Shown here: piece after piece, positions 2,870 through 22,473 of the stretch
How positions within the stretch are numbered: the first letter of the stretch is position 1
Layout: every line of letters begins with the position of its first letter
NCBI GenBank assembly: GCA_937888665.1
Contig: CALBET010000175.1
Location: 1 to 27,930, forward strand
Length of the DNA stretch: 27,930 nucleotides
Source: an uncultured Acidobacteriota bacterium
GTDB taxonomy: Bacteria; Acidobacteriota; Vicinamibacteria; Vicinamibacterales; UBA8438
Reading direction: 5' to 3'
Program-made: the position numbers and the translations under genes
The notes under the pieces: generated by a model
The model's database searches: none
Seen by the model: the letters and a program-made list of their open reading frames with translations, nothing else
Told to the model about the DNA's origin: nothing

Positions 2870-4816
2870 TTACGGGGTCAGTGCCCCGGTCACGGACGCG
2901 ATCAGTCCCGCGATATCGAGCTGGTGGTACGCCAGCACCTCTTCGTTCGTGCCGCAAACCGGCAGTTCGCGGACACCGATCGCGGTCACCGGAACCGAGA
3001 GCCCGAGCTGGGCAATTCGGCTGGCGAGCATCTGGCCTTGCCCGCCATCGACGTAGTGGTTGTCGAGCGTGAAGACCCGCTGCGCATCGGCGACCGCCTC
3101 CTGGAGCCAGGCAGCGTCGACACGATTCAGCCATGGCATGTCGATGACGCGCGCATGCACCCCGTGCTCAGCCTCGAGGCGCTCGGCCGCATGGTACGCG
3201 TTGCTCAGCAGCCACGGTCCGGCGCCGATGAGCACGACGACGTTGTCGGAGCCGCCGGGCCGCACCACCGTGCCGACACCGAGTTCGAGCGCGTAGTCGG
3301 CCGGCAGGGTGAACGGTACCGGCCAGCCGAGCGACACCAGCCGGATGTAGCTGCTTTGGGTCGTCTGCTCAAGACAGAACGACAGCGTGGCCGCCGATTC
3401 GGCTTCGGTGCAGGGCTCGATGAGAATCAGATTCGGGATCGCAGCCAACGCCGAAATATCGCGGACCGCCTGGTGCGAATGCCCAGGGCCACCGGGCAGC
3501 AGCCCTGCCAGCGAGCCGACATAGATGACCTTCGTCCCCTCGCTGGCGTTGTTGTAGATCTGCTCGTTCGGCCGCGCCGAGAGGAAGCAGGCGAACGAAT
3601 GGGCTATCGGCACCAGCCCCTGACGCGCCATCGCCCCCGCCTGCGACACCATGTCTTGCTCGGCGATTCCGCATTCGATGAAGCGGTCGGGGAACTGGTC
3701 CCGAAACTCAAGCAAGCCACAGTCCTTGACCAGGTCGGCGTCGAGCGCGACGATAGCGGGGTTGCGCCGAGCGTGCTCGACAAGCGCGGTGCCATACGCG
3801 TTGACGAGACGCTCGACCTCCAGCACCGGTTTGCGGGGTGGTCGGCGGGCGGTCTCGAGCACCAGGTCGCCCAGACCCGCCTCGCGCAGGCGGTCGCGAG
3901 CGGCGGCGATCAACTCGGCCGCCCCTTTGGCGTACGCCTCCTCGTTGGGCGCGCCGCTATGGAAAAGATACAGCGAGTCCGCCGCGAGCGCCGCGGGCCC
4001 CTCCATGAACGAGACGCCCTTGCCCTTGACCGTGTCGGCGATGAGCACTTTCGGCACGCCGGGACTCGCGTTGAGCTGTGCGAGGGCAGCGTCGAGCGCC
4101 GCGAAGTCGTGACCGTCGCAGCGTGCGACCCGCCAGCCAAAGCTGGCGAACTTCGCCTCGAGATCGCCAAGAGGACCCACGTCTTCCACCCACGTGTCGG
4201 ACTGAATCTTGTTGTGGTCGACGATGACGGTGATCTCGTCGAGCCCCAATGCGACCGCCGATCCGAGCGACTCCCAGATCTGCCCTTCCTGCAACTCGCC
4301 GTCACCAGTCAGCACGAAGATCTGACGACGCTGACCGCGGAGCCGATTGGCTATCGCCATCCCCTTCGCTTTCGAGATCCCCATGCCGAGCGATCCGGTG
4401 TTCGCCTGGATGAAGGGCGTCTCGACGTGAGGATGCCCGGCCAGACCGTCCACCCGGCGCAGAGCGTGCAACAACTCGAAGTCGAGCAGCCCGAGCCCGG
4501 TCAGCACGGCGTAGAGCGCCGGGGCGTCGTGTCCCTTCGACGAGAAGAAGAGGTCGCACCGATCGTCGCCCTGGTCCACCCCCTGCATCTTCTGCAAGAA
4601 GAGCCAGGTCATGATATCGGTCGCGCTGAAGCAGGTGCCCGGATGCCCCGACCAGGCCCTGGCGATCGTGTAGAGGACGTTGATACGCGTGTAGGCCGCG
4701 AACACCGCGGCACGCGGCTGCGGGTCCAGGTGACGCTCGAGGAGCGACTCGAATGCCCTCCGCGGTACGTAGAACAGCTCGTCGGATTCGACCTGTTCGA
4801 GCTGCGATTCACCCAT
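2870..4816 (-). CDS. Single-chain ThDP-dependent transketolase-like enzyme (N- and C-terminal domains fused) with an atypical acceptor site
   Basis: SGHPG, SKGH, GHP, GSLGMG, ThDP motif GDGELQEG...DHN, TVKGKG, GIAEQ, SHQ; GGAGG Shine-Dalgarno upstream of the ATG. Confidence 0.9.
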   Translation of the reverse strand: MGESQLEQVESDELFYVPRRAFESLLERHLDPQPRAAVFAAYTRINVLYTIARAWSGHPGTCFSATDIMTWLFLQKMQGVDQGDDRCDLFFSSKGHDAPALYAVLTGLGLLDFELLHALRRVDGLAGHPHVETPFIQANTGSLGMGISKAKGMAIANRLRGQRRQIFVLTGDGELQEGQIWESLGSAVALGLDEITVIVDHNKIQSDTWVEDVGPLGDLEAKFASFGWRVARCDGHDFAALDAALAQLNASPGVPKVLIADTVKGKGVSFMEGPAALAADSLYLFHSGAPNEEAYAKGAAELIAAARDRLREAGLGDLVLETARRPPRKPVLEVERLVNAYGTALVEHARRNPAIVALDADLVKDCGLLEFRDQFPDRFIECGIAEQDMVSQAGAMARQGLVPIAHSFACFLSARPNEQIYNNASEGTKVIYVGSLAGLLPGGPGHSHQAVRDISALAAIPNLILIEPCTEAESAATLSFCLEQTTQSSYIRLVSLGWPVPFTLPADYALELGVGTVVRPGGSDNVVVLIGAGPWLLSNAYHAAERLEAEHGVHARVIDMPWLNRVDAAWLQEAVADAQRVFTLDNHYVDGGQGQMLASRIAQLGLSVPVTAIGVRELPVCGTNEEVLAYHQLDIAGLIASVTGALTP

Positions 4817-4822
4817 CTCGAT

Positions 4823-5578
4823 TCATCCTCCAAAGGCCGCCCGGTTCACAGGCGGCAGCGTCCAGTCCCCGCTGGCGACCAGCTCTTCGGCGAGCCGCCA
4901 ATCCCATGTGTCGTTGATGTCGAACCCCTCACGTTCGTCCGTCCTGAACGGCACGAGCGTGTGACCGGCGATGGTGCGCCCCTCGAGTGCCACCCGACTC
5001 CAGGCGATCTCCAGGCTCGCGTTCTGCACCCAGACCTCGGGCAGCGACGGCATCTGGCTGCTGTGCCACGGCTGCTCAGCCGGACCGAACGGGAGCAACG
5101 GCAGCAACCGGTCGCCCCGGATGACCCACATCTTCCCGGGGTGCTGACGCACCCGCTCCACGGCCCGGAGCGAATCGACGCCGTCCGCGCCCCGAAACAC
5201 GGACCAGGCCCGACGGATGGTGTCGGCGGTCCGGAACGGGCTGGTCGGTCTGAGAATAGCGAAGCAGTCAAAGGTTCTATCGGCGTCCCGCAGCGCGCCA
5301 AGCCCGTGCTCGACCCACTCGATGTCAGGTGACCGCGCCCCGGCTATCGTCGCCGGTCTACGGAACGGCACCTCGGCGCCGTAGTGTCGCGCGACCTCGG
5401 CGGTCGCTTCGTCATTTGTCGACACCACGACCGCCCCGAACACCCCGGAATCGCGCGCGCCCGCGATCGTGTACGCGATGAGCGGATGACCACCCAGCAC
5501 GCGGATGTTCTTGCCGGGCACTCGAATCGACCCACTGCGGGCCGGAATGAACGCGACACAGGACGGCTCGGTGGTCAT
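4823..5578 (-). CDS. neuA: Acylneuraminate/nonulosonate cytidylyltransferase (NeuA/CMAS family)
   Basis: IPARSGSIRVPGKNI, VVVSTND, LRPTSPFR, QNASL, FDIND. Start moved to the ATG at 5578 (MTTEPSC) because the longer ORF-track start lies inside a MITE. Confidence 0.88.
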   Translation of the reverse strand: MTTEPSCVAFIPARSGSIRVPGKNIRVLGGHPLIAYTIAGARDSGVFGAVVVSTNDEATAEVARHYGAEVPFRRPATIAGARSPDIEWVEHGLGALRDADRTFDCFAILRPTSPFRTADTIRRAWSVFRGADGVDSLRAVERVRQHPGKMWVIRGDRLLPLLPFGPAEQPWHSSQMPSLPEVWVQNASLEIAWSRVALEGRTIAGHTLVPFRTDEREGFDINDTWDWRLAEELVASGDWTLPPVNRAAFGG

Positions 5579-5598
5579 CGACGGCACGGCGCAGTAGT

Positions 5599-5756
5599 GC
5601 GTATCACAATGACGGTGACCTATTCGGTCGCCGAGGCGCCGAATCACCGGGCGCGAGGAGGGAGCCTACGGGAAGTCGACGCGTCGTCACAACGCCCAAC
5701 GCCGCGACGGGCGGGACGGCTCGGTGATCGAAAGCGGCGCCGTCATTGTGACACGC
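5599..5756. mobile_element. MITE-like element C (about 158 bp)
   Basis: Terminal inverted repeats GCGTATCACAATGACGG (5599-5615) and CCGTCATTGTGACACGC (5740-5756) match 16/17, with TA 2 nt outside each end; inner imperfect IR; contains the shared core start GGGCGCGAGGAGGGAGC (5649-5665). Confidence 0.7.
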
Positions 5757-5761
5757 GGTAC

Positions 5762-7237
5762 TCAGACGGCCCCCGGGTCGGCATGGATGTAAATCGTCTT
5801 CCAGTCGGAGTAGACGTCGAGCGCTTCGGTGCCAGCCTCGCGCCACCCGGTGCCCGACTGCCGTAGCCCCCCGAACGGCATGTGCGGCTCGCTGCCGTAG
5901 GTGCCCCCGTTGATGGACGCCACGCCCGACTTGATGCGGCTGAGGAAGGTCATCGCACGGTCGACGTTCGCGGTGTGGATGGCGGCGGTGAGCCCGAACG
6001 GTGAGGCGTTGGCCAGACTGATCGCCTCGTCGAAGTCGGCCACGCGGTACAGACAGGCGATCGGCCCGAACAACTCCGCCTGGGAAATCTCAGCCTCCGC
6101 GGCGGCGCCCTCGAGCAGCGTGGGTGTCATGTAGAACCCGTCGCGGTGCGCATCGTCCGTCATCCGTCCGCCACCGACCAACACCGTCGCGCCGGCGGCC
6201 CGTGCCCGGTCGACCGCCGAGACCATGTTGTCGAGCTGCCGCTGATTGATGACCGGACCTAGGTCGTCATCGTCGGCCGGGCCAAGCGTGAGGCTCCGCG
6301 TGTACTCCAACAACTGTTCCTTGAATCGGTCGTAGACCTGGTCGAACACGATCAGTCGGCTGCCGGATGCACATCGTTGCCCCGCGTTGCTGAACGCGGA
6401 CAGACCGGCAATCGTGACGGCTCGATCGAGATTTGCGTCGTCGCAGACGATAAGTGGGTTCTTGCCACCGAGCTCCAGGCAGACCTTGGCCAGACGCGCG
6501 CCGGCGGTCGCCTGAATCTGCCGACCCACGCCGCACGACCCGGTGAAGCTGATCAGGTCGACACCCGGGTGCTCCACCAGCGGCGCTCCCGCCTCGGGCC
6601 CGTATCCCTGGACGACATTGAACACCCCGGGCGGAATGCCGACGTCGTCGAACACCTTCGCCGCGGCCCACGCGGTGGCGGGTGTATCCTCCGACGCCTT
6701 CATCACCGCGGTGTTCCCGCAGAGCAGCGCCGGGTACGCCTTCCAGGCCACGTTCGCGATCGGCGTGTTGGCGGCGATGATCAGACCGGCGACCCCCAGC
6801 GGCTGCCTGACGATCAGGGCCGTCCGGTGCGGCACCGCGCTGGTCGTCGTCTTGCCATAAAACCGACGCCCCTCCCCGGCGACGAACAGCCCCATCTCGA
6901 CTGCTGCGCCCGTCTCGCCGCGAGCGTCCTGTCGGGACTTGCCCGTTTCGAGCGAGACGATCTCCGCAAACTGGTCGCTCCGCTCGCGCATCAGCAACGC
7001 CGCCTCGCGGAGCAGATCGCCGCGAGCGACCGGGGTCATCCCGGCCCAGTCCGGCTGCGCGCGTTGCGCTGCCGCAACCGCTGACTCCACATCGGCCGCG
7101 CCGGAGCGAGCGACGGTGCACAACTCGGCTCCGGTCGCCGGATTCAGATTCGGTAGCGTCTGCCCATCCTTCGCGGCATGCTCTCTACCGTCGATCCAGT
7201 TCGGTATCTGCGGCGGTATCAACGACGTTGGGTGCAT
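5762..7237 (-). CDS. NAD(P)-dependent aldehyde dehydrogenase
   Basis: FTGS, LELGGKNP (catalytic Glu), NAGQRCASG (catalytic Cys), ELFGP, PFGGLRQSG; AAAGGA SD upstream. Confidence 0.93.
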   Translation of the reverse strand: MHPTSLIPPQIPNWIDGREHAAKDGQTLPNLNPATGAELCTVARSGAADVESAVAAAQRAQPDWAGMTPVARGDLLREAALLMRERSDQFAEIVSLETGKSRQDARGETGAAVEMGLFVAGEGRRFYGKTTTSAVPHRTALIVRQPLGVAGLIIAANTPIANVAWKAYPALLCGNTAVMKASEDTPATAWAAAKVFDDVGIPPGVFNVVQGYGPEAGAPLVEHPGVDLISFTGSCGVGRQIQATAGARLAKVCLELGGKNPLIVCDDANLDRAVTIAGLSAFSNAGQRCASGSRLIVFDQVYDRFKEQLLEYTRSLTLGPADDDDLGPVINQRQLDNMVSAVDRARAAGATVLVGGGRMTDDAHRDGFYMTPTLLEGAAAEAEISQAELFGPIACLYRVADFDEAISLANASPFGLTAAIHTANVDRAMTFLSRIKSGVASINGGTYGSEPHMPFGGLRQSGTGWREAGTEALDVYSDWKTIYIHADPGAV

Positions 7238-7306
7238 CTCGATGAGATCCTTTTCGTGCTATGGGCTCTTGGTGTGGGCCAGCAGCCCACTAAGAAACCG
7301 CGTGCC

Positions 7307-7425
7307 GGGTTTCCTGGCGAGGCGTTCGTCTGGCCAGGCGCGACGAGGGAGCATGCAGGTGGCATGTGACCCCGCTGAGCCGAAGCCGCGACGTCCGCCC
7401 TTGCGGACGCCTCGCCAGGAAACCC
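7307..7425. mobile_element. MITE-like element A (119 bp)
   Basis: Perfect 19-bp terminal inverted repeats GGGTTTCCTGGCGAGGCGT (7307-7325) and ACGCCTCGCCAGGAAACCC (7407-7425); directly abuts the SDR stop codon; contains the shared core at 7336-7371. Confidence 0.8.
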
Positions 7426-8262
7426 CTACCAGGCGGTGAAGCCGCCGTCGACCCGCAACTCCGTACCGGTGACGTACGTCGACGCGTCGGACGCGAGAAA
7501 GCGGAGCGGGCCCGTCAGGTCGCTGGCCTCCGCCATGCGACCCAGCGGCACTCGATCGTTGAACTTGCGCTGGAACTCCGGGTCCTGGCCACCCAGCACG
7601 CCTCCGGGGGACAATGTGTTGACCCGGACACCATACGGTCCCCACGCCGTCGCCAGATACCGGGTCAAGTTCACCACCGCTGCCTTCGAGGCGCCGTAGG
7701 CCGGTGGCTTCAAGAACGGCGGGTCCAGGTTCATATGAGCGTAGAGGCGGAGGTCCGGCGACACGCTGGCGTAGAGCGACCCGATGTTGATGATCGAGCC
7801 ACGTCGCGCTTTGACCATCTCGGCCCCGAATACCTGGGACACCTGGAACATCCCCAGGGTGTTGACCTCGAGAATCGCACGACTGGCGTCCAGTGGGACA
7901 TCTTCCATCCGATGGTATGTCGCGCCATCCGTGGAGGCCGGCTGGTCGATGCCGGCATTGTTCACCAGCACCGAAGCCACACCCATGAGTTCGGCGCTGG
8001 CCGCCTGGGCCGCCACAAGCGAGGCCCGATCCATCACATCGGCGCGATGCAGGCGGAGTCGCGGTGCGCCGGTCGAATGGATCGACTGCGCATACCGATC
8101 GAGCAACGACTGCAGGCCCGGGCTCACCGGCGCCCGCTCCAGGTCGAGCGCGAATACCCGCGCGCCGGCATCCAGGAGCGCACCCACCCAGATCGGTCCT
8201 AGCCGGCCGGACGCGCCGGTCACCACGGCGACCGTATCATCGAGACGAAACTGGTCTTTCAT
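7426..8262 (-). CDS. Classical short-chain dehydrogenase/reductase
   Basis: VVTGASGRLG, VNNAG, catalytic YGASK, VRVNTLSPGG, LRVDGG. Start moved to the ATG at 8262 (MKDQFRLDD); the longer ORF-track N-terminus is read from a repeat. Confidence 0.92.
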   Translation of the reverse strand: MKDQFRLDDTVAVVTGASGRLGPIWVGALLDAGARVFALDLERAPVSPGLQSLLDRYAQSIHSTGAPRLRLHRADVMDRASLVAAQAASAELMGVASVLVNNAGIDQPASTDGATYHRMEDVPLDASRAILEVNTLGMFQVSQVFGAEMVKARRGSIINIGSLYASVSPDLRLYAHMNLDPPFLKPPAYGASKAAVVNLTRYLATAWGPYGVRVNTLSPGGVLGGQDPEFQRKFNDRVPLGRMAEASDLTGPLRFLASDASTYVTGTELRVDGGFTAW

Positions 8263-8264
8263 TA

Positions 8265-8475
8265 GACGGGGCTGCGCCCCGAACCCCCGCGGGCCCTTCG
8301 CGGGGACCCCGCAACGCCCCACGCCGGACCCGCGAGGCGCGCACGTGCGCGCCTTGCCCTGACGGGGCTACGCGTCCATTCTTTGACGGGGTTACGCCCC
8401 GAACCCCACGCGACGGCTACGCGGGGACCCCGAGTGCCCCACTCCGCCGCCGCGGGGCGCGCATTGTCGCGCGCC
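8265..8475. repeat. Two REP-like multi-hairpin direct repeats of about 90 bp with a 120-bp period
   Basis: Copy 1 (8265-8353) begins GACGGGGCTGCGCCCCGAACCCC; copy 2 (8385-8475) begins GACGGGGTTACGCCCCGAACCCC. Both contain CGCGGGGACCCCG and end in a GGCGCGC/GCGCGCC hairpin. A partial third start GACGGGGCTACGC lies at 8361. Confidence 0.8.
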
Positions 8476-8497
8476 GTGGCCGGACACGATGCACTAT

Positions 8498-8655
8498 CAG
8501 TCCTTGGTGAAATTCCCGCGTTGCACGGAGACCGACGCTGGTTCGGTCGAGCAAGGCGAGAAGAGGGAAAATACCGGCAATATTTGACCGGTGAACAACG
8601 CGGATCGGCCGGATTCAGCGACGGTCGAATGCAGCGGGACTTTTGCCACGGGCTG
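8498..8655. mobile_element. MITE-like element B (158 bp)
   Basis: Imperfect TIRs CAGTCCTTGGTGAAATTCCCGC and GCGGGACTTTTGCCACGGGCTG (17/22), TA one base outside each end, nested inner IR (8531-8550 vs 8605-8625), and the shared core at 8554-8589. Confidence 0.72.
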
Positions 8656-8660
8656 CTAGC

Positions 8661-9722
8661 CTACTGGCCGGCCAACTCGAGTTGGTCAAGCGAGAGGGGG
8701 TCGTCCACGGACAGCGCCACCTTTGTCACCGCCCCGATCACGCGTTGGATCTCGACCGGGGCAAGCCCGTCGCCCGGCGACTTGACCGCTATGTCATCCA
8801 CGGTCAGCGTCTGACCGGCCGGCACGTCGCGGGCCGCGACCAGCTTCTTGCCCATCTTCAGCACCGGCCCGGCCTCACTCGGAAAGACGACCTTCGTCCC
8901 GTCGCCCATGCTCCGTCGGGCTCGCTCGAGGTCGCGGGTCATCTTGCGCATGCCGACCGGTTCAAGCGAGAAGACGTTGTCGGTTCCCTTCATCGCCCGG
9001 TTCAGCGTGAAGTGCTTCTCGATGACCCGCGCGCCCAGCACATAGGACACGACCGGCATCGCAATGCCGTTGTCGTGCCCCGAGTAGCCAATCACGATGT
9101 CTGGGAATCGCTGACGATAGGTGTCGATGACCCGCAGGTTGAGCTCGTCGAACTCCACCGGATAGCCGCAGGTGCACTGCATGATGCAGAGTTGCGTGTT
9201 GATGGCCATCACCGTCTCGTAGGCGCGTTCGACGTCTTCCATGGTCCCGCCGCCGGTGCTCACGATGATCGGTTTCCCGAACGCGGCCACGTGCGCCAAC
9301 AGCGGTAGGTTCCGCAGGTCGCCCGAGGCGATCTTGTAGGCGGGCATGTCCAGCGCCTCGAGAAAGTCGGCACTGAGTACGTCGAACGCGGTGGCAAAGA
9401 AATCCAACCCCAGTTCGGCGGCATACGCCTTCAGTTCGACATACTCCTCGTTGCCGAATTCGAGCGCCTCGCGATGTTCGCCGTAGGTCGCGCCGAAACT
9501 GTTCTCGTTCTCGTACGGCTTGTCGAAGGCGGTCTGGGTAAAGAGGGTCCGATTGTCCCGCTTCTGCAGCTTCACCGCGCTCACCCCGCAGGACTGCGCC
9601 TGGCGGAACATCTCTTTCGCCGTCTCGAGGTTGCCTTGGTGGTTATGCCCGACCTCCGCAATGACGTAGGCAGGGTTGTCGTCGCTGACGACGTGCCCTC
9701 CCAGCTTCAATTCGCGTGACAT
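8661..9722 (-). CDS. neuB: NeuB-family nonulosonate synthase with C-terminal SAF/antifreeze-like domain; 9-phosphate (NANS/Kdn9P-synthase-like) type
   Basis: IAEVGHNHQG, VKLQK, TYGEH, YKIASGD, IVSTGG, IGYSGH, IEKHFTL, SLEP. GGAGGAGG SD supports the ATG at 9722 (MSRELK). Confidence 0.93.
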   Translation of the reverse strand: MSRELKLGGHVVSDDNPAYVIAEVGHNHQGNLETAKEMFRQAQSCGVSAVKLQKRDNRTLFTQTAFDKPYENENSFGATYGEHREALEFGNEEYVELKAYAAELGLDFFATAFDVLSADFLEALDMPAYKIASGDLRNLPLLAHVAAFGKPIIVSTGGGTMEDVERAYETVMAINTQLCIMQCTCGYPVEFDELNLRVIDTYRQRFPDIVIGYSGHDNGIAMPVVSYVLGARVIEKHFTLNRAMKGTDNVFSLEPVGMRKMTRDLERARRSMGDGTKVVFPSEAGPVLKMGKKLVAARDVPAGQTLTVDDIAVKSPGDGLAPVEIQRVIGAVTKVALSVDDPLSLDQLELAGQ

Positions 9723-9765
9723 CGTCCGGTCCTCCTCCACGAGGTAAATGAAGAACTGTGGGCGG

Positions 9766-10716
9766 CTAGCCGCGTATGCGGGACACCAGCGCGTCCCAGC
9801 CCAGTGCGCCGGATGCGGTCGCCCGCGCGCTGTCGGCGATCGACTGCAGTGTGTCCGGCTCCGTCGGTAGTGCCTCGCACCGGTGGATGTCGATCACGTT
9901 GTGCATGTGGTCGAAGACCCCGGGCGAGTGCTCGTCGAAATTGGTGAGCACCACCGACCCGCAGTCCATGGCGGCATTGACGGTGGTGTTGTTGGCCCGC
10001 ACCCCTTTGTCGAAGAAGGCGGCGAAGAACGTCGTGTCGATCAAATAGTTGTACACCGCCGTGTCAGACATGTACCCCAGAAAATAAATATGCTCGCCGT
10101 AGATCTCCCGCAACTCGTCGAAGACCACCGTGAACCGCTCATCAAACGCGGTGCCCTCATGCAACGCCGTGGAGAGATAGACGGAATACGGCCGGCCCGT
10201 CTGCTCCAGCAGCGCGTGCACCGTCCGGTGCAGCTCCGACCGCACCTTGTGCGCCATCCCGAACGCGAACACGGAGAGCCCCTCCAACCGGAAGCGCTGC
10301 GGCTCGAGCAAGGTCGATGGGCACCAGGAGTCCTGTACGTCTGGACGCTGCACCCGCAGCTCGGCGACGAGCTCGGCGTTGCCGCAATACACTGTCGCGG
10401 CCCGAGACAGCAGCGACCGCTCCACATCCGTGTCGGTCCACGCGTGCAGAAACAGACTGAACCCGCCACGCCACGACGCCGTGCCGAGCAATGACACCAG
10501 TGCGGCGCTGTCAGTGTCGGAAAACTCGGACTGCTTGAGCGATAGCACGGGATGCGCCATCAACGCGGCCCGGTCGTCGAACACGCTGAGCATCGGCACC
10601 TCCAGATGACGCGCAAGCAGCAGGTTGAACTTTGCCACTCCGCAGGTCAGGGGATTGAGGTGATATCCGAGCACGCCGTCGGCGCGCCCGGTTCCGACGG
10701 CGGGCTGCTCGCTCAC
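9766..10716 (-). CDS. Short, atypical GT-B-like protein (putative glycosyltransferase)
   Basis: CGVAKFN, AFGMAHK, YFLGYMSD and GVRANNTTVNAAMDCG resemble a GT4-like C-terminal domain. The GTG start at 10716 overlaps the upstream TGA (GTGA). Confidence 0.55.
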   Translation of the reverse strand: MSEQPAVGTGRADGVLGYHLNPLTCGVAKFNLLLARHLEVPMLSVFDDRAALMAHPVLSLKQSEFSDTDSAALVSLLGTASWRGGFSLFLHAWTDTDVERSLLSRAATVYCGNAELVAELRVQRPDVQDSWCPSTLLEPQRFRLEGLSVFAFGMAHKVRSELHRTVHALLEQTGRPYSVYLSTALHEGTAFDERFTVVFDELREIYGEHIYFLGYMSDTAVYNYLIDTTFFAAFFDKGVRANNTTVNAAMDCGSVVLTNFDEHSPGVFDHMHNVIDIHRCEALPTEPDTLQSIADSARATASGALGWDALVSRIRG

Positions 10717-14082: not shown

Positions 14083-15170
14083 CAAGCGAGTTCCGACTCG
14101 AACACACGACGCCATCCCACTACATGCTTGTACCCACTGTCCTTTGGGGTGGGGTCGGCGTCCAGCATCTTGGTGTAGCTAACCGGCAGCACGTCGATCC
14201 CGTGCGGCCAGTAGTACTGCCCGATAATCGAGCGAACGTTGCTCAGTTCCTGATTGTGATGCGACCGGTCCCGGTTGAGGCTATAGAGGTAGGGGCACTC
14301 CAGTTCAAATGCGTGACGGACGTATCCCTCGACCTGCTGGGTCGTCATCTCCTGAAAAGACACCATGTTAATCATCAGATCGACCTGCTCTGGACGAGCC
14401 GCGGCGTGAAACGTGTCAGGGAGGAAGATGAAGTCGAGATCCCGCCAGTCGTTGAACGTCTCCTGCGGGGCGACTTCTCCGTAAAACCGCACTTTGGCGT
14501 CGGGAAAGGCCGCCATCAGATAGGTGGCCGAGAACAGGAACAACTCGGGGAAGTCCGTGATGACGTAGGTGACATTGGGGCACAGCTTCTTGAACTGGTA
14601 GGGGAACCCGCCCCACCCGGCGCCGATCTCCCACACGAGTTTCCGCTCAGTCGCTTGGCGCATCTCGCTGAGCACTGCCCCCATCCGCATGGCGATCAGC
14701 ACTTCGTAGAACTTCAAGGTGTCGATATTGACGAGGTCGCCCTCGATGTCGAACCCAAAACCTCCGAGGAGCGTCGCCTCGGGTACCCAGAGATCCGCGT
14801 CGTCTAGCGCACGCAGGGCCGCAAGCTTCTCGGTGAACCGTTCGCGCTGACGATTCAAACTCTGCCGGTAGTGATTGGCATGAAGCCCGGTGAGATTGTG
14901 GGTATGGTGGCGCAGCTTCTCGATGATCAGTGGCGACGCGTCGAGCATATACTCGAATTTGGCCAGTTCACCTGACCAGTAGTCGCTGGGCGCGTGACCG
15001 ATCAGTCGGCGGTTCCGCCCCAGCGCCATGAGACCAAGCACCTGTCGTCGGACCCGCAGGTAGGCCTGGTAGGCGGCCGCCGTGCGGCGGACGCGGAGCT
15101 GCGCGTCCCACGCGTCGGCCGCAGCGTGGGGAGTAGCCGACAACTCTTCGGTTGGGGTCTGCTCGCTCAT
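14082..15170 (-). CDS. Putative sugar O-methyltransferase (NanM-like family)
   Basis: VWEIGAGWGG, ITDFPELFLFSATYL and DLMINMVSFQEM match the NanM/Leptospira-type sugar O-methyltransferase pattern. The ATG at 15170 forms an ATGA overlap. Confidence 0.75.
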   Translation of the reverse strand: MSEQTPTEELSATPHAAADAWDAQLRVRRTAAAYQAYLRVRRQVLGLMALGRNRRLIGHAPSDYWSGELAKFEYMLDASPLIIEKLRHHTHNLTGLHANHYRQSLNRQRERFTEKLAALRALDDADLWVPEATLLGGFGFDIEGDLVNIDTLKFYEVLIAMRMGAVLSEMRQATERKLVWEIGAGWGGFPYQFKKLCPNVTYVITDFPELFLFSATYLMAAFPDAKVRFYGEVAPQETFNDWRDLDFIFLPDTFHAAARPEQVDLMINMVSFQEMTTQQVEGYVRHAFELECPYLYSLNRDRSHHNQELSNVRSIIGQYYWPHGIDVLPVSYTKMLDADPTPKDSGYKHVVGWRRVFESELA

Positions 15171-16741
15171 AGAACTGCACCACGTGAGCGGAAGCGCTTG
15201 CGGGCCTTCCCTAGGCGCTCGCGCCACTTCCAGAACTGCCAAGCCGCCATTGATAGTGATGCCACAGTGTTCGCAAACCGCTGCGCGCGGCGCGCGTCGA
15301 AAACCACCAGGAAAACCGCCAGGGTCCACAAGCCGGCTCGCAGCGGCCACAGGCGTACGGGAAGCACGTGGTCCGCCTCCGGGACGGTGCCGGCCAGTTG
15401 CTCAAGCGCCGCCACAAGTCGCGGCGTTGCCGCGACATCCAGCCCGTGAGGCCGCACGAACGTCTTCGTGAACGCGCGGGCCGACGGGGCCTGCCCTCCG
15501 TCTATGGTCGCCGAGAGCTGACGCGTGTGTTCCTTGAGGCTGGTCGCGCGCTGGAGGTGGCCTCCGTTCTCCGGCAGCAGATATCTGAAGTGCAGGGTGC
15601 CGGTCTGTGTCTCGTCGAATGATGAGTCGACAATGGTGAATACTGGCCGGTCTTGAATACCGGACTCGATCATGGCCGACGTGTTGATGCCGACGATGCC
15701 GGCACCGTGGTGCAACGTGTCGTAGTAATCGGCCCGATCGTCGTTGTCGACCGGATTCGCGCCACTCCTCGGATAGACCGCCACGTTGGCATAGCTCGAC
15801 AGATCCACCGATTCCCAATGCGCGCAATTGTATGGATGCGGGCGGATCAAGATGCCCAGCTCTTTTAACGAACCGGGCCCGCTACGCACCGCCTCGATCC
15901 AGCGTTTGACGAACCGCACCTCCGGTGAGGGTGCGGAAATCGAGGCCGTAGAACCGGTGAACACGACGAACGGACGGTCTGGGGACAGACCAACCCGTCG
16001 GCAGAAATCGTCGCGCGACCGACGTGGGGTCCGATCGAACCATCGGTCGAAGCACTGGGCCCCGGTCACGACGATCCGCTCGGCAACCGCACCGTGAAAA
16101 TCGAGTGCCTCCCGACGCTGATCGTGGTTCCACACAGCCACCAGGTCGGGCTGGATACGCATCAGCCCCTTCGTGGTCAGGTGATCCCAGGAGGCCACGC
16201 ACAAGGCGCTGCGCACCCCAACCCGCCGAGCGGCTTTGATGAGATCAACTTGGGGGCACTGATCGGTCACGAGCGGCGACACGACAAGCACGTCTGGGGC
16301 AATCCGTCGCAGATACGTTTCCAACGCCCTGCTGCTGGGCACCGCCCGCTCGCACGCCAACAGGACCCGCACGATGCGGGCGGTGCGCTCCGCGGTGGTC
16401 GTCGTCCACCGGCCCAGAAACCGGGTCAGTGGCGGCAGGACGGTGCGCATTCGATCCCGCAGATAGGATGAATGCTCGAACCGCGGGTGCAAATACCGCG
16501 CGTAGTCGATGGTACCCCGTATGCCGCGTGCCACGGGGTTCCAGATGTCTGGGCGCCGCGGCACCGCATCGAGCACCTCGACGTCACCGTCGATGCTCTC
16601 CAGCGCCGCCAGTCCTTCCGGTTGCTTGTGCGGCTGGTCGAAGGCCACCAACACCTGGTGCCCGCGTTGACTCAGCGCTTCGAGGGCCGAATCGAAGTAC
16701 CGCAGATAGCCCGGGTACTGCAGGACGAAGAGCACTCTCAC
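15167..16741 (-). CDS. GT-B-like protein ('WDNL/HP' type; TagF/KpsS-like superfamily), paralog 2
   Basis: SWDHLTTKG, VWNHDQ, TGAQCFDRWF, ILIRPHPYN, GINTSAMIESGI. The GTG start overlaps the upstream stop. Confidence 0.65.
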   Translation of the reverse strand: MRVLFVLQYPGYLRYFDSALEALSQRGHQVLVAFDQPHKQPEGLAALESIDGDVEVLDAVPRRPDIWNPVARGIRGTIDYARYLHPRFEHSSYLRDRMRTVLPPLTRFLGRWTTTTAERTARIVRVLLACERAVPSSRALETYLRRIAPDVLVVSPLVTDQCPQVDLIKAARRVGVRSALCVASWDHLTTKGLMRIQPDLVAVWNHDQRREALDFHGAVAERIVVTGAQCFDRWFDRTPRRSRDDFCRRVGLSPDRPFVVFTGSTASISAPSPEVRFVKRWIEAVRSGPGSLKELGILIRPHPYNCAHWESVDLSSYANVAVYPRSGANPVDNDDRADYYDTLHHGAGIVGINTSAMIESGIQDRPVFTIVDSSFDETQTGTLHFRYLLPENGGHLQRATSLKEHTRQLSATIDGGQAPSARAFTKTFVRPHGLDVAATPRLVAALEQLAGTVPEADHVLPVRLWPLRAGLWTLAVFLVVFDARRAQRFANTVASLSMAAWQFWKWRERLGKARKRFRSRGAVL

Positions 16742-19461
16742 CGTACGGACTCGCTCGGCGCCGGATCGCCGGCCCAGGGCTCGGTCACGCGTCCGGGGCT
16801 TCCCGGAGTGTCGGGCGCTGTCGATGACGCATCCAACGCATGTCCCTCCACGACCAGGCTCAGCAGGTCGAGCGAGTGCACGTCGAGCGCGACGAAGGAC
16901 CCGCGCTTCAGCGTGGCGGCCGCGCGATACATCAGGTCAAGATGATGAGGCGCCACATGCTCCGGGTTCGAATAGAAGGCCAGCGACCGGACGCCGTAGA
17001 ACGGAGCGACATACGACAGGCCGCCGTAATTACCGACGTAGGCGCGGGCGCCACTGATGACTTTCGTCTGCACCTCCAGGTTGTTCCTGGGCTCCAACAA
17101 CTGGTCGATGCTGTGCACGCGTCGCGTCACATCCGGCTTCAGGTCCCAGTGATCATCCACAAGGAATCCGGGGTTGAGCAGCACGACGTCGGTGATTTCA
17201 GTGACCCGCGTCAGGAGACGGCGAACAAAGTCCATGTTCTCCACGGTCTCTGGGAACGGATTGTTGTAGTAGAAGCGGACGGCCACGTAGTCGTCGGGGA
17301 GCTTGGACGTCACGTCCGAGGCGTCGATCGCCGGCAACCGCTCGAAAGAGGAAAACGACTCGATGAGGTTGATGGACGCGCGGCTCTTCCAATAGGGGTA
17401 GAACAGTCGATACATGTACATCGGGTGGAACAGCTCCGCGTCCCGACGTTCAATGGCGAGTTTGACGAGCTTGACCACGTCGCGGTCGAACTCCGTCAGC
17501 GCCCGTTGTTTTACCTCGCCTTCCGCGAGCCGCTGGTCGTGGCGCTGCTTGATCTGCGACGGCGTGAAGAAGTCGAACACGTCGATGTACCGCGCGCCGA
17601 TACCCTCGTACCAGGCGGCGACGCCGCCGCGCGAGACGATGACCAGTCGCTCCGGGTCGAAGTGCCGATAGGTCTTCACCCAACGCAGGAACGGCACCCA
17701 GTACAAAATCTCGAACCCGACCTCACTCAGCCATGGACCGACGATCAGCGGGCGATCGCTCTTGTGCAACTTGTCGATGATGCGTGGAATCGCGACCATT
17801 TCCTCGGTCGGTTCATCCGTACTCATCCGCGGCACAACCCGCGGCACCACGTACTTCTTGACGAAGGTCTTGGCCGGCCGCCAGCGGAGGCACACATCGA
17901 GCCCGGAGAAGATGGGCTTCAGCATCATCCCGCTCAGCGTCAACGGTCGCAGCTGGCGCTGCCGCTTGCGCGACGTTCGAGTAAATTCCCGGACCACCTT
18001 CAGGCCGATCGCCACCGGATACAGCAACCATCTCAGCGGGTACAGCCACCCCGGAGTGCCGGCGGCTGACGGGCGCGGGAGACGTCCGAGCTCCTCGATA
18101 GCGTCCGCGATGAGCGGGGTCGCGGCCACGTCGAGGCCCTTCGGTCGCACGAACGCCTCGATGAACCCCCTGAGCTTCGCTTCCTCGTTGGACCGCTGGT
18201 CGAACACGTGCCCGAGTTGCGCGACATGTTCAGCGAAGTCGTGCGCGTTGTGCACGAGCCCACCGCCGGCCTCGAGCAAGTGCTTGAAGTGCAGGGTGCC
18301 TTCCTGTGTCCCGATATGCTCGTCGGTCTGGATCGTGAAGACCGGCCGCCCGACGATACCCGCCTCGATCTGCGCGCTGGTGTTCACCCCGACGGCCGCC
18401 ACGCTGTGAAACAACGAATCGTAGAAATCGTTCTTGGAGCCGGCGTCCACGGGGTTGTCGCCACCAGCCGGCCAGACCGAGACGTGATCGAACTCGGCGA
18501 AGTCGTGTTTGTGCCACGGCTGCAGGTTCTGCGGGTGCGGCCGCACCAGGATGGACGCGTTACGCACCCCCTCAGCATCTTTGCCTGGGGCCTCGCCCAG
18601 CGCGCGAACCCAGCGCTCCACGAACGCCGCCTCGTTCGGCGCGATGAAGCCAGACGAACAGAGATACACCACGAACGGGCGATCGGCGGGCAACCCGACC
18701 TTCGCGCAGAATTCCTCACGAGTGGTGCTCGGGGTCCGATCGAACCACTGGTCGTAGACCGGCGCCCCCGTCGCGAGGACGTGCTCTGGCGGCAGGCCGT
18801 GCATGGCGACCGCCTCCTGTCTCTGCAGCTCGTTCCACACATACACACGGTCGGGCTTGATCCGGATGAGGCCCTTGTTGGTGAGGTTGTCCCAGCTGTG
18901 CACGCACAGCCCGGTCCGGATCCCAAGGGCGCGGGCGCTCTTGAGATAGTCGGCCTGGTCTGACCCGAGGTCAACGAGCGGCGTGACCAGCACGACATCG
19001 GGGTTCTGTGACGCTATGAGCGTATTGACCCACGTGTCCGCCGGAATCGCCTGTTCGATCCAGAGCAGCAACCTGGACAGCCCACGGCGTCCGAGGCCGC
19101 TATTGATCAGTGGCAATTTACTGAAACCAACCAGCGACCGAGGCAACCGCAACTGCGCCCGCTCGCGAAGCTTGTCGGCGTCCCGGTACTCTGGACCGAG
19201 ATACCGCAGGAAATCGGCCCAGAAACGGACCCCTCGAGCGAGCCCGAGCCAGAAGCGATACGGGGTTTTCTTCGTGGCCAGTTCCGAATGCGTAATCGTC
19301 GCGTAGTCGTCCGTGAGGTCCCACAGAAGACGCCCGTCGCCCAGCTTGTCCTGCATGACAAACGTGAGATGCACGTGGTGCCCCCGGTCGGCGAGTTCCC
19401 GCACCGTGGACGCGAAGTTCCGGAGCGCGCCCGGGTGCCGCATCGAAAACAGAATCTTCAT
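16738..19461 (-). CDS. Two-module putative glycosyltransferase/polymerase: WDNL/HP GT-B-like module + 'GPWLSEVGFE' domain
   Basis: 907 aa. N-terminal half paralogous to 15167-16741 (SWDNLTNKG, ILVRPHPQN, GVNTSAQIEAGI); C-terminal third paralogous to the C-terminus of 11872-14082. Confidence 0.75.
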   Translation of the reverse strand: MKILFSMRHPGALRNFASTVRELADRGHHVHLTFVMQDKLGDGRLLWDLTDDYATITHSELATKKTPYRFWLGLARGVRFWADFLRYLGPEYRDADKLRERAQLRLPRSLVGFSKLPLINSGLGRRGLSRLLLWIEQAIPADTWVNTLIASQNPDVVLVTPLVDLGSDQADYLKSARALGIRTGLCVHSWDNLTNKGLIRIKPDRVYVWNELQRQEAVAMHGLPPEHVLATGAPVYDQWFDRTPSTTREEFCAKVGLPADRPFVVYLCSSGFIAPNEAAFVERWVRALGEAPGKDAEGVRNASILVRPHPQNLQPWHKHDFAEFDHVSVWPAGGDNPVDAGSKNDFYDSLFHSVAAVGVNTSAQIEAGIVGRPVFTIQTDEHIGTQEGTLHFKHLLEAGGGLVHNAHDFAEHVAQLGHVFDQRSNEEAKLRGFIEAFVRPKGLDVAATPLIADAIEELGRLPRPSAAGTPGWLYPLRWLLYPVAIGLKVVREFTRTSRKRQRQLRPLTLSGMMLKPIFSGLDVCLRWRPAKTFVKKYVVPRVVPRMSTDEPTEEMVAIPRIIDKLHKSDRPLIVGPWLSEVGFEILYWVPFLRWVKTYRHFDPERLVIVSRGGVAAWYEGIGARYIDVFDFFTPSQIKQRHDQRLAEGEVKQRALTEFDRDVVKLVKLAIERRDAELFHPMYMYRLFYPYWKSRASINLIESFSSFERLPAIDASDVTSKLPDDYVAVRFYYNNPFPETVENMDFVRRLLTRVTEITDVVLLNPGFLVDDHWDLKPDVTRRVHSIDQLLEPRNNLEVQTKVISGARAYVGNYGGLSYVAPFYGVRSLAFYSNPEHVAPHHLDLMYRAAATLKRGSFVALDVHSLDLLSLVVEGHALDASSTAPDTPGSPGRVTEPWAGDPAPSESVR

Positions 19462-19604
19462 GACAGCATCCGGTCGACCCAGGCACCCAGCAGGTGCGCC
19501 GGATCGACATCGATTGTTCTCGTCAATTCCGCGGGCACGCCCAGCATGACGCCGGCTACAGCGTGCGAGACCGCCAGAGAGAGGTACTGCAGGTCACCCT
19601 TCTG
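19458..19604 (-). pseudogene. 3' remnant of a deleted gene (possibly wzt)
   Basis: Open frame QKGDLQYLSLAVSHAVAGVMLGVPAELTRTIDVDPAHLLGAWVDRMLS*. About 78% GC at third positions (38/49 codons, counted by hand); its TGA overlaps the next gene's ATG (ATGA); the 5' side is bounded by a MITE end. Confidence 0.55.
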
Positions 19605-19633
19605 GAATGCAGCGGGACTTTCACCACGGGCTG
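19605..19633. mobile_element. Solo terminal inverted repeat of the element B family
   Basis: GAATGCAGCGGGACTTTCACCACGGGCTG matches 8627-8655 at 27/29; no partner end found nearby. Confidence 0.75.
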
Positions 19634-19667
19634 TCAAGCCACGTCGATCCGGTGTCGACCGCGGACA

Positions 19668-21973: not shown

Positions 21974-22473
21974 GCTGGCGAGCCCTCGTGCGCCTCCACC
22001 AGCAAGTCGCACACCTCACGCACCGCGCCCAGCCCGCCTGACCGCTCAGTTACGTAGCGCGCCACGACCAGGGCGGCCGGATACGCGTCAGCCACGCAGA
22101 TGGAGACCCCCACATTGCGCAGACAGTCCACGTCGTTGATGTCGTTGCCGACGTAGGCGACCTGGTCAGTTGCGAGGTCGCGGTCCGCGAGAATCTGGCG
22201 GAGCGCAGCCCACTTGGTGTCGCCCAGCCCCTGGACACACTCGATGCCCAGCTTCGCGGCCCTGGCCGAAACCACCGGATTCGTCTCCGTGGACAGCACG
22301 AGCGAGCCGAGGCCTAGACGACGCAACGCCTGGAGGCCCAGTCCGTCAGCACGCGAGCAGAACACCGCCTCTTTGCCGTCTTGATCGACCAGCACGCGGT
22401 TATCGGTGAAGACCCCGTCGAAGTCGAACACCACGAACGTGACGGGCCTGAGATGTTCAGCGGTGAGTCGCAT
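21970..22473 (-). CDS. KdsC/YrbI-family HAD phosphatase, probably nonulosonate-9-phosphate (Kdn9P-type) phosphatase
   Basis: FDFDGVFTD, ADGLG, STETNPVVSARAAKLGI (Glu and Lys 11 residues apart), YVGNDINDV, GGLGAVREVCD. Confidence 0.88.
   Translation of the reverse strand: MRLTAEHLRPVTFVVFDFDGVFTDNRVLVDQDGKEAVFCSRADGLGLQALRRLGLGSLVLSTETNPVVSARAAKLGIECVQGLGDTKWAALRQILADRDLATDQVAYVGNDINDVDCLRNVGVSICVADAYPAALVVARYVTERSGGLGAVREVCDLLVEAHEGSPA

Follow-up and report, generated by a model that had tools for sequence, protein, structure and literature searches.

The described systems closest to the locus analysed here are the 9-phosphate routes to Kdn and sialic acid, represented by BT1714/BT1713 of Bacteroides thetaiotaomicron (Kdn-9-P synthase and Kdn-9-P phosphatase, respectively) and by vertebrate NANS-NANP-CMAS. 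The resemblance lies in a NeuB-family synthase, a KdsC/HAD-type phosphatase and a CTP_transf_3 protein within one locus, and in the lack of NeuC or other dedicated precursor genes; the difference lies in three further conserved enzymes inside the block, i.e., an SDR, an aldehyde dehydrogenase (ALDH) and a transketolase (TK)-like enzyme. A second parallel is the Shewanella Kdo8N pathway, in which a completed ulosonic acid likewise has its tail oxidised once the synthase has acted, followed by conversion of the carbonyl: KdnB, a metal-dependent alcohol dehydrogenase, oxidises the C8 hydroxyl of Kdo and KdnA then transaminates the product. KdnB, however, acts on a primary carbon, and that pathway involves no ThDP enzyme, C-C cleavage or ALDH.

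Among ThDP enzymes, YerE acts on a sugar, as proposed for the TK-like enzyme, and attaches a C2 branch to a nucleotide-linked keto-sugar, although it belongs to the acetolactate-synthase-type branch. Human TKT (4kxu), split-chain TK (6yak/6yaj) and DXP synthase have the same three-domain fold as our enzyme and, like it, the ThDP motif GDG...N, the Glu that activates the cofactor and all the active-site His. Transketolase proper serves the pentose phosphate pathway, whereas the TK-like enzyme is encoded in a surface-sugar operon.

Organisation of the Locus

The window, i.e., the whole stretch of 27,930 nucleotides that was analysed, comes from an uncultured member of the Acidobacteriota (contig CALBET010000175.1), an acidobacterium of soil or sediment. 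Five genes form a single intact block on its minus strand in the coding order NeuB, SDR, ALDH, NeuA and TK, and domain and motif matches confirm the block as delineated in an earlier sequence-only reading. All the pathway proteins of the window that match an NCBIfam model score under the curated cut-offs. No RNA run contains the stretch.

The first gene encodes a NeuB-family, PEP-condensing ulosonic acid synthase (8661..9740, probably starting at the ATG at 9722) with PF03102 (E 6.5e-76) and a C-terminal SAF domain, whose closest structure is N. meningitidis NeuB and which reaches 285 bits against TIGR03569 (cut-off 399). The classical NAD-type SDR (7426..8322, likely true start M21, at 8262; adh_short_C2, E 1e-35) carries the motifs TGASGRLG and YGASK and the NAD-type Asp after strand β2. 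The NAD(P)-dependent ALDH (5762..7237; PF00171, E 1.6e-152) has the catalytic motif ELGGK255 and the Cys of GQRCAS, its closest named families, under cut-off, being 2,5-dioxovalerate and α-ketoglutarate-semialdehyde dehydrogenases. The NeuA/PseF-like CMP-ulosonic acid synthetase (4823..5647, likely true start M24, at 5578; PF02348 CTP_transf_3, E 4.7e-18) matches TIGR03584 PseF with 117 bits over residues 31-254 (cut-off 205.7). The last gene (2870..4816) encodes a fused, human-type (short) TK-like ThDP enzyme with all three TK Pfam domains (Transketolase_N, Transket_pyr and Transketolase_C) in a single 648-aa chain, which scores 401 bits against NF004559 (cut-off 488) and 223 bits against human TK 4kxu, its closest structure.

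In the same gene string, 12 kb upstream, lies a KdsC-family HAD phosphatase (21970..22473, minus strand), a candidate ulosonate-9-phosphate phosphatase matching NF007019 KdsC (116 bits) and NF058599 Kdn-9-P phosphatase (82 bits), both under cut-off. It is 78% identical to a copy that in another locus (L001) lies three genes upstream of NeuB, and in 9-15 related loci a KdsC-type phosphatase is placed directly 3' of NeuB. It is a real gene that fits the pathway as suggested earlier, and we infer that the product of NeuB is a 9-phosphorylated nonulosonic acid of the Kdn-9-P type. Also confirmed as real is a D-2-hydroxyacid dehydrogenase (23208..24260, minus strand; 2-Hacid_dh_C, E 7e-53), with matches under cut-off to the PGDH and glyoxylate reductase families.

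A compact 316-aa glycosyltransferase with a GT-B/GT4-like fold is encoded at 9766..10716 (minus strand, start fixed by alignment), and in 23 loci its gene immediately precedes NeuB. The protein has no Pfam or NCBIfam match; its AlphaFold model (pLDDT 84) retrieves BshA (3mbo, E 3.7e-9, TM 0.67), as well as HepE and PimA, in Foldseek searches and indicates that it is a transferase and not a sugar-synthesis enzyme. Three paralogous proteins of GT-B fold in the model (15167-16741, 16738-19461 and 20471-22012, minus strand) cluster with proteins from 13 other loci and accompany the cassette in 14 loci. No Pfam match was found for them, and a model with pLDDT 82 resembles UDP-GlcNAc 2-epimerases (Z 25), TarL (Z 20.7) and WaaA (Z 20.5). 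They are candidate CMP-sugar transferases or polymerases. Their span (15167..22012) also holds an unrelated 299-aa gene. As for the two methyltransferases named earlier, the nucleotidyltransferase::MTase fusion (10713-12137) is solid, while the putative second one (14082-15350) has a sub-threshold Methyltransf_12 match only (E 2.4e-4). The methyltransferases and the 2-hydroxyacid dehydrogenase are found in a minority of cassettes and are accessory.

Conservation of the Cassette

The co-occurrence of the five genes elsewhere was evaluated in 49 non-duplicate loci containing a TK homologue with at least 6 kb of flank on each side. All four TK partners are present in 33 of these fully flanked loci, 29 of the 49 showing identical gene order and strand; the genes are not grouped by chance. 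The cassette extends over about ten phyla, among them Acidobacteriota, Pseudomonadota, Chloroflexota, Gemmatimonadota, Verrucomicrobiota, Planctomycetota, Actinomycetota, Melainabacteria and Myxococcota, and a reduced, four-gene version that retains the TK is found on phage contigs. For the SDR, at an orthologue threshold of E <= 1e-80, matches occur in 12 of 401 Acidobacteriota genomes (400 plus that of the window), and all 12 are TK-positive, with 3-4 kb between SDR and TK.

The sequence-only reading had proposed an undescribed pathway that remodels the carbon skeleton, with a lack of co-occurrence of the five genes elsewhere among the grounds for refuting it. The cross-phylum conservation decisively contradicts such a lack, and the searchable literature yielded no description of the cassette; taken together, both results support the general proposal well. 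The interpretation as a whole is supported in part.

A Proposed Route by Removal of a C2 Unit

The TK-like enzyme falls in a clade of its own, separated by a long branch from the other TK homologue of the genome. Across 84 homologues, every residue that binds ThDP or takes part in catalysis is invariant, among them the two His contacting the donor C1-OH (the pattern retained comprises H37, H77, H110, D155, N185, H258 and E366). In contrast, the phosphate ligands Arg318, Ser345, His416 and Arg474 and the ligand of the acceptor 2-OH, Asp424, are replaced in 84 of 84 sequences: in our enzyme by V, D, L, S and P, respectively, and family-wide by V/I (Arg318), D (Ser345), L/Y (His416), S/N/I (Arg474) and P (Asp424). 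Such losses would fit a non-phosphorylated substrate in which the pyranose ring oxygen is the oxygen of the α-carbon.

The best NCBIfam matches of the SDR, all under cut-off, are D-mannonate oxidoreductase, gluconate 5-DH and KduD. Among named structures it is closest to galactitol DH (2wdz), gluconate 5-DH (1vl8) and polyol DH (3awd); the best match overall (6uh2) is an unnamed SDR. These best-scoring characterised relatives are (omega-1) dehydrogenases that convert -CHOH-CH2OH into -CO-CH2OH in sugar acids or polyols, all making a terminal ketol beside CH2OH; they are, though, catabolic enzymes with C6 substrates, about 30-35% similar to the window SDR and under every curated cut-off.

The chemistry that we favour, to which we give an even chance, would run from a Kdn-type sugar through its 8-keto form and a C7 aldehyde to a C7 ulosaric acid and its CMP-sugar. 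NeuB would join PEP and a hexose 6-phosphate, most simply Man-6-P, to give Kdn-9-P, and the KdsC-type phosphatase would release the free sugar. The NAD-dependent SDR would then oxidise the penultimate C8 hydroxyl, so that the glycerol tail would end in a ketol (-CHOH-CO-CH2OH). This is the donor motif of transketolases, and the C7/C6 configuration of Kdn and Neu5Ac is the D-threo configuration of their normal donors. The TK-like enzyme would split the C7-C8 bond of this 8-keto sugar and remove a C2 unit, and the ALDH would oxidise the resulting C7 aldehyde to the carboxylate, yielding a 3-deoxy-hept-2-ulosaric acid (the L-arabino isomer if derived from Kdn). Before or after this tailoring, NeuA would form the CMP-sugar, and the neighbouring GT-B proteins would transfer it to a surface polymer.

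Several observations count against C2 removal. A transketolase normally requires an aldose acceptor, which here would have to bind at a site stripped of its phosphate ligands; the family similarities of SDR and ALDH all lie under curated cut-offs; and distant SDR homologues (38-40% identity) occur in two NeuB/KdsC/NeuA loci (L102 and L103) with no transketolase nearby.

Natural Variants and Other Readings

In six loci (three Myxococcota, three Acidobacteriota), a class-III aminotransferase, 63-70% identical among one another, takes the place of the ALDH. A split transketolase of another lineage (30-41% identity) is present in two of the three Acidobacteriota loci, which means that TK chemistry was recruited twice; the remaining Acidobacteriota locus is truncated upstream of its aminotransferase gene. 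The swap indicates that SDR and TK deliver a carbonyl compound, to be oxidised in some loci and aminated in others, and implies an aldehyde product, these variants being the closest counterpart of the Kdo8N pathway. It would fit equally well if the SDR oxidised the primary C9 hydroxyl to an aldehyde, leading to a nine-carbon ulosaric acid (ALDH) or a 9-amino sugar (aminotransferase) as KdnB and KdnA do for Kdo8N, with a separate role for the TK-like enzyme; dehydrogenase plus ALDH and dehydrogenase plus aminotransferase are indeed classical two-step pairs. Nevertheless, the gene that defines the module would then have no role, despite its recruitment from two lineages into the same aminotransferase-SDR-KdsC-NeuB set and its retention even in the four-gene phage version, and the nearest characterised SDR relatives act on the penultimate, not the terminal, carbon. 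We rate such oxidation without cleavage as quite unlikely.

Other cassettes are of the NeuC (ManNAc) type, with the order 2-Hacid_dh, SDR, TK, ALDH, NeuC and NeuA. Since the SDR-ALDH-TK triad also accompanies these, it appears to act on the tail common to Kdn and Neu5Ac and not on precursor supply. The latter would have SDR, TK and ALDH make an unusual aldose for NeuB to condense with PEP, in line with the usual role of transketolases upstream of such synthases and with the absence of NeuC or other dedicated precursor genes from the window. We consider it improbable, the weakest of the readings weighed: the NeuC-type cassettes own a precursor enzyme and still keep the triad, the TK lacks phosphate ligands whereas adjacent KdsC-type/HAD phosphatases imply a phosphorylated NeuB substrate, and the ALDH yields an acid where NeuB needs an aldehyde. 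The residue at the former Arg474 position follows the precursor type: the NeuC-type loci have Asn (7 of 7), the others Ser or Ile. Because the NeuC-type loci form one clade, this is weak evidence.

Homologues of the 2-hydroxyacid dehydrogenase adjoin SDR-TK in L037, L041, L061, L063, L106 and L107; they are frequent in NeuC-type cassettes and absent from most NeuB-type ones. Most NeuC-type loci with this arrangement lack NeuB in cis (none within 10 kb at L037, L041, L063 and L046), and a C2-adding role fits equally well there. The TK-like enzyme would then move a glycolaldehyde unit, possibly from hydroxypyruvate made by the dehydrogenase, onto a sugar aldehyde; the CH2OH-CO- end created in this way would be converted by SDR and ALDH into a 2-keto acid, by analogy with L-sorbose > sorbosone > 2-keto-gulonate, or else its ketone would be reduced by the SDR. 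Either way, an extended sugar would result. In loci without NeuB, this would amount to a PEP-independent route to a 2-ulosonic acid and would give every gene a role. The window too has a 2-hydroxyacid dehydrogenase, and the loss of phosphate ligands also suits hydroxypyruvate and a free aldose. On the other side, NeuB-family genes occur elsewhere in 5 of 5 NeuC-type genomes tested, and L062 has NeuC, NeuB and NeuA in line. NeuB in the block (in the window and 29 other loci) makes a second route to the keto-acid head redundant, a completed ulosonic acid has no aldehyde that could serve as acceptor, and most NeuB-type cassettes lack the 2-hydroxyacid dehydrogenase. Moreover, the SDR relatives act on secondary, not primary, hydroxyls, and ALDH or aminotransferase would compete with TK for whatever aldehyde served as acceptor. 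C2 addition, the other option put forward earlier, is thereby weakened and seems unlikely, if somewhat less so than the two readings above, and the comparison with YerE is reduced to a cofactor analogy. C2 removal, the option put forward alongside it, is favoured by the (omega-1) SDR kinship, the ALDH/aminotransferase swap and the triad in NeuC-type loci.

Implications

The C4 of Dha lies on the side made by KdsA-type enzymes, in the D-lyxo configuration. Dha is likewise a C7 ulosaric acid, and how it is made is still given as unknown (PMC12168206). If a NeuB-derived sugar were cut at C7, the product would instead be L-arabino, so the pathway is not expected to make plant Dha. Nor would a single compound be expected from all cassettes: the ALDH is absent altogether from phage contigs, Saccharibacteria and actinomycete natural-product clusters, which counts against C2 cleavage and suggests that the end product differs between variants. 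With the odds evenly balanced in our estimation, the block may be one representative of a widespread tailoring module added to a nonulosonic acid pathway of the 9-phosphate type.

Gene content and surroundings of the block

The window belongs to a MAG of 6.0 Mb (1243 contigs, 83% complete, 4.9% contamination), its closest relatives are MAGs of Vicinamibacteria (Acidobacteriota), and every gene between 236 and 26676 lies on the minus strand. The sequence-only reading had claimed that five genes form one block in it, and this proved right: in coding order they encode a NeuB with a SAF domain (8661-9740), a classical short-chain dehydrogenase (SDR, 7426-8322), an aldehyde dehydrogenase (ALDH, 5762-7237), a NeuA/PseF-like cytidylyltransferase (4823-5647) and a single-chain transketolase-like (TK-like) protein of 648 aa (2870-4816), all with open frames, lengths that agree with those of their homologues and their catalytic motifs present. 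The gaps within the block are unusually long because dispersed repeats occupy them (7307-7425, 8263-8660 and 5579-5761). One repeat unit measures about 118 nt and has 22-nt inverted arms that are 95% complementary, while two others measure about 165-220 nt, each of the three being present in this genome in more than 40 copies of 76-97% identity. These elements are MITE/REP-like and interrupt no reading frame. Several of their copies sit at contig ends, and the gap between NeuA and ALDH holds a 46-nt inverted repeat.

The same strand carries, after the block in coding order, two GT4 genes. Upstream of it is a fusion (10713-12137) of a cytidylyl/adenylyltransferase-like domain to a class I methyltransferase, which also stands beside the cassette in five compared loci (L001, L005, L006, L013 and L025) and is split into two genes in a sixth (L004). 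A GT2 gene, the KdsC-type phosphatase gene (21970-22473), one for a D-2-hydroxyacid dehydrogenase and members of the GDP-mannose-dehydratase and UDP-glucose/GDP-mannose dehydrogenase families lie upstream as well. The gene preceding NeuB (9766-10716, true start about 10716) encodes a 316-aa protein without a Pfam or NCBIfam match, whose model resembles a compact GT-B/GT4-like glycosyltransferase (pLDDT 84; BshA at E 3.7e-9, TM 0.67); it has an invariant H19 and a HEN/AHK-rich core, and precedes NeuB in 23 loci. Three paralogous proteins (15167-16741, 16738-19461 and 20471-22012) have a GT-B fold, share SWDNLT and RxHP motifs and accompany the cassette in 14 loci, the paralogue of 907 aa having an additional C-terminal module. 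Fold searches did not assign them to a specific CMP-sugar transferase family, with UDP-GlcNAc 2-epimerases scoring best and WaaA/TarL lower; they are candidate transferases of the proposed new CMP-sugar. A separate protein of 576 aa, which shows a weak signal of the KpsC/KpsS type, accompanies the cassette in 24 loci. A catabolic role of the block was considered and rejected, since NeuB and the cytidylyltransferase are biosynthetic and glycosyltransferases lie all round.

Conservation and spread of the cassette

In Acidobacteriota assemblies, proteins close to the TK-like one (60-91% identity) are plentiful, and the gene run recurs on three long contigs that encode them. A scan with one genome per species extended the set to 80 loci (46-91% identity) in many phyla. 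Partner genes were counted by tblastn with the window proteins in the 49 non-duplicate loci that have at least 6 kb on each side of the TK gene: SDR was found in 44, NeuB in 42, NeuA in 40 and ALDH in 38. All four occur in 33/49, and in 29/49 they keep the order NeuB > SDR > ALDH > NeuA > TK on one strand, so that the co-occurrence of the five genes in other genomes, on which the sequence-only reading depended, was borne out. Carriers include Sideroxyarcus, Methylobacter, Thiohalomonadaceae, Xanthobacteraceae, Chloroflexaceae, Gemmatimonadales, Verrucomicrobiota, Phycisphaerales, Thermoleophilia, Gaiellaceae and Melainabacteria, as well as a cultured rhizobium, Ciceribacter sichuanensis S101. 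About ten phyla are represented, with lineages from soil, sediment, fresh water and the sea.

Of 401 Acidobacteriota species genomes searched (400 besides that of the window), 15, from 10 of 228 genera, have the TK-like gene. Taking a match at E <= 1e-80 as an orthologue, the SDR is present in 12 of the 401, all of them among the 15 TK-like carriers and each with 3-4 kb between SDR and TK. This patchy occurrence, together with the intermixing of phyla in the TK-like tree (FastTree), is in keeping with a surface-glycan module that moves horizontally. The plasmid collection holds one member of the TK-like family, in a record of Streptomyces sp. NBC_01237 without annotation. No RNA run contains the window stretch, and DNA runs contain at most 15% of its sampled words.

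Family assignment of the enzymes

The window NeuB has the layout of its family, with a TIM barrel (PF03102, 255 bits over the whole profile) and a SAF domain (PF08666), and falls below the models of Neu5Ac and Pse synthases (285 bits with TIGR03569, whose cut-off is 399.65, and 225 bits with TIGR03586, whose cut-off is 340.25). The NeuA-like protein exceeds the cut-off of PF02348, its best stretch covering only profile positions 2-73, and reaches 117 bits with the PseF model TIGR03584 over residues 31-254, under the cut-off of 205.7. The possible use of a 6-phosphorylated hexose by NeuB (9-phosphate type) was judged from gene context: many related loci have a KdsC-type or HAD_2 phosphatase inside the cassette, and the window has its KdsC-like gene, which lies outside the Kdn-9-P phosphatase equivalog (NF058599, 81.6 bits against 180) and scores higher with the KdsC model NF007019 (115.9 bits), yet under that model's own cut-off.

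The SDR is a classical one: it contains the cofactor motif TGASGRLG and the Ser-Tyr-Lys set (YGASK209), and both adh_short and adh_short_C2 are above cut-off. Its best curated families, all under cut-off, are D-mannonate oxidoreductase, gluconate 5-dehydrogenase and KduD, and among the structures closest to it are those of galactitol dehydrogenase, gluconate 5-dehydrogenase and a polyol dehydrogenase. These relatives oxidise the carbon adjoining a terminal CH2OH to give -CO-CH2OH, which points to an equivalent carbon as the target of the SDR, although at this modest similarity it is a lead and not a proof. An Asp after strand beta2 suggests NAD+ as the cofactor, in agreement with an oxidative role. 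The ALDH matches the full profile of its superfamily (PF00171, 509 bits) and has ELGGK255 and GQRCAS, the motifs of the general-base Glu and the catalytic Cys; it reaches no equivalog cut-off and is generic, its nearest named families acting on keto-acid semialdehydes.

Among solved structures, the one closest to the TK-like enzyme is that of human transketolase (4kxu; 223 bits, with an alignment over the whole length), and the enzyme contains the transketolase motif set, i.e., GDG-x(25-30)-N with the cofactor-activating Glu and the active-site His residues. In that alignment, the ThDP motif (D172, N202), the activating E386 and the residues H58, H96, H128, H286 and H448, the last at the position of yeast His481 and human Gln428, are all kept and are invariant in 83-84 of 84 homologues. 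The protein is thus probably a competent ThDP catalyst of ketol transfer, and appears nearer to TK than to DXS because the two His residues that hold the dihydroxyethyl C1-OH are kept. Nevertheless, the phosphate-binding and acceptor-binding residues of transketolase (EC 2.2.1.1) are lost family-wide. The human phosphate ligands R318, S345, H416 and R474 correspond to V338 (V/I in the family), D365 (D in 83/84), L436 (L/Y) and S495 (S/N/I), and the stereo-determining D424, which binds the acceptor 2-OH, corresponds to P444 (P in 84/84). No transketolase equivalog model reaches its cut-off with the window protein. To judge from these residues, the enzyme would be unable to bind ordinary sugar phosphates; it lacks one of the features by which transketolase proper is defined, and is best kept out of that class.

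A proposed route to C7 sugars

What would such an enzyme do between NeuB and NeuA? The known frame is the 9-phosphate route to Kdn and sialic acid, and the closest functional parallel for tailoring of the tail is Kdo8N. In the route that we favour, NeuB would form a 9-phosphorylated nonulosonic acid (Kdn-9-P if its substrate is Man-6-P) from which the phosphatase would release the free sugar; the SDR would oxidise the C8-OH, the TK-like enzyme would use the resulting ketol as donor and break the C7-C8 bond, and the ALDH would turn the C7 aldehyde into a carboxylate. NeuA would activate the product, perhaps after these steps, and the adjacent GT-B proteins would install it. In both Kdn and Neu5Ac, the arrangement at C7 and C6, viewed from the side of the ketol, would be the D-threo one of normal transketolase donors. 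The Asp for the acceptor 2-OH would be useless here, since the C6 oxygen is the pyranose ring oxygen, and this accords with the Pro at that position in every family member.

The product derived from Kdn would be 3-deoxy-L-arabino-hept-2-ulosaric acid, in agreement with the L-arabino name carried by the C7 periodate analogue of Neu5Ac. An identity with Dha, a C7 ulosaric acid of plants and rhizobia, was rejected on stereochemistry: the products of the NeuB family have C4 on the side opposite to that of Dha, and a C7 cut of Kdn leads to the L-arabino diastereomer. The biosynthesis of plant Dha is itself still unknown (PMC12168206).

Natural variants of the cassette

Seven loci with a gene for the ManNAc precursor (NeuC-type; L037, L041, L063, L046, L062, L106 and L107) have the order SDR-TK-ALDH-NeuC-(NeuB)-NeuA. 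The triad of SDR, TK and ALDH therefore accompanies phosphatase-type and ManNAc-type precursor routes alike, which argues for an action on the glycerol tail (C7-C9) that the products share and against one in precursor supply. Where Arg474 formerly stood, 7/7 of these loci have Asn and the others Ser or Ile, as might be expected if the sugar ring, with its 5-NHAc or 5-OH, occupied the old phosphate pocket; as the seven loci form one clade, this pattern counts as a single event. It is also here that the strongest rival, a C2 addition from hydroxypyruvate, finds its footing: a 2-hydroxyacid dehydrogenase adjoins SDR-TK in most NeuC-type loci, most of these have no NeuB in cis, and there, in a bolder reading, the triad together with a dehydrogenase that forms hydroxypyruvate might make a 2-ulosonic acid with no need of PEP. 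However, each of the five such genomes that were tested has NeuB genes elsewhere, NeuB stands in line in L062, and the window has NeuB inside the block, which leaves a C2 addition without an obvious aldehyde acceptor.

Removal of the tail is also consistent with loci in which a class-III aminotransferase takes the place of the ALDH, in Myxococcota (L038, L040 and L056) and Acidobacteriota (L100, L101 and L104). These aminotransferases are 63-70% identical among themselves, and their loci have SDR, NeuB, mostly KdsC and, in 5/6, a fatty-acid-hydroxylase-like gene, the operon order being (split or fused) transketolase, class-III aminotransferase, SDR, KdsC, NeuB and fatty-acid-hydroxylase-like gene (e.g., L100:6562-12856). 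The simplest common intermediate is an aldehyde open to oxidation or amination, and from the variant one would expect a C7 sugar with a terminal amine. L100 and L101 have, instead of the fused TK, a split transketolase from a different lineage (30-41% identity) that is coupled in translation to the aminotransferase; transketolase chemistry was thus recruited twice, and TK can be regarded as integral to the pathway. Of five genomes that have a related SDR and seemed to lack TK, two (L100 and L101) carry the split enzyme directly upstream, and the contig of a third (L104) ends before the TK position. Only L102 and L103 have truly no TK in the neighbourhood; they have a distant SDR (38-40% identity) and an added oxidoreductase, in the order GFO/IDH/MocA, SDR, NeuA::KdsC fusion (414 aa), short NeuB, TylF and FkbM methyltransferases and a Capsule_synth-like gene (L102:8402-15569). 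Apparent fusions of SDR with TK (L078) and with ALDH (L065) were rejected as read-through of overlapping frames in ORF calling.

Other variants lack the ALDH and must reach a different end product. IMG/VR phage contigs (L087:5728-15359, also L086, L088, L089, L091 and L093) carry, between the large terminase and the portal/capsid genes, NeuB-SDR-NeuA-short TK followed by an FkbM methyltransferase, a minimal four-gene set without ALDH or phosphatase; their TKs have 424 aa, have no C-terminal domain and form a separate clade. Actinokineospora enzanensis DSM 44649 and two Streptomyces genomes (L071:3956-21864, L078 and L085:12108-15881) have NeuB-SDR-TK without ALDH or NeuA. The Actinokineospora trio is followed by an RmlD-like reductase, a HAD_2 hydrolase and a class-IV aminotransferase, and lies near an ATP-grasp amino-acid ligase, an MFS pump and an NRPS condensation domain. 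Such neighbours are those of a natural-product cluster, for which the trio may supply a polyhydroxy amino-acid building block. A Saccharibacteria locus (L066) with NeuB-SDR-TK-NeuA also has a 514-aa fusion of NeuB to a sugar isomerase-like cupin (12737-14281), two more NeuB-like genes and a second NeuC-NeuA pair.

Implications

Taken as a whole, and with slightly more doubt than belief, we read the module as making a new family of acidic sugars, bacterial and phage-encoded: C7 analogues of sialic acid or Kdn whose terminal group is a carboxylate, an amine or an aldehyde, formed by an enzymatic, periodate-like truncation in which an 8-keto-nonulosonic acid is the donor for a transketolase-fold enzyme that makes no use of sugar phosphates. 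We know of no such donor for the transketolase superfamily. No paper tying a transketolase to a nonulosonic acid pathway was found in the literature searched, which left out most subscription journals, and the SDR-TK-ALDH (or aminotransferase) insert is without a described counterpart in searchable papers.

Nonulosonic acids shape the encounters of bacteria with hosts, phages and minerals, and the known routes (Neu5Ac, Kdn, Leg, Pse and their epimers) all retain, to our knowledge, the nine-carbon skeleton. If ThDP chemistry shortens it, doubly charged, or amino, sugars would form a new class at the cell surface, and the transketolase superfamily would gain a new type of reaction and the CMP-sugar transferases new families. 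The module is ecologically broad, reaching about ten phyla, phage genomes and actinomycete natural-product clusters, and the sialidase-resistant, DMB-reactive C7 keto acids predicted from it would escape present surveys of nonulosonic acids or be misassigned in them.
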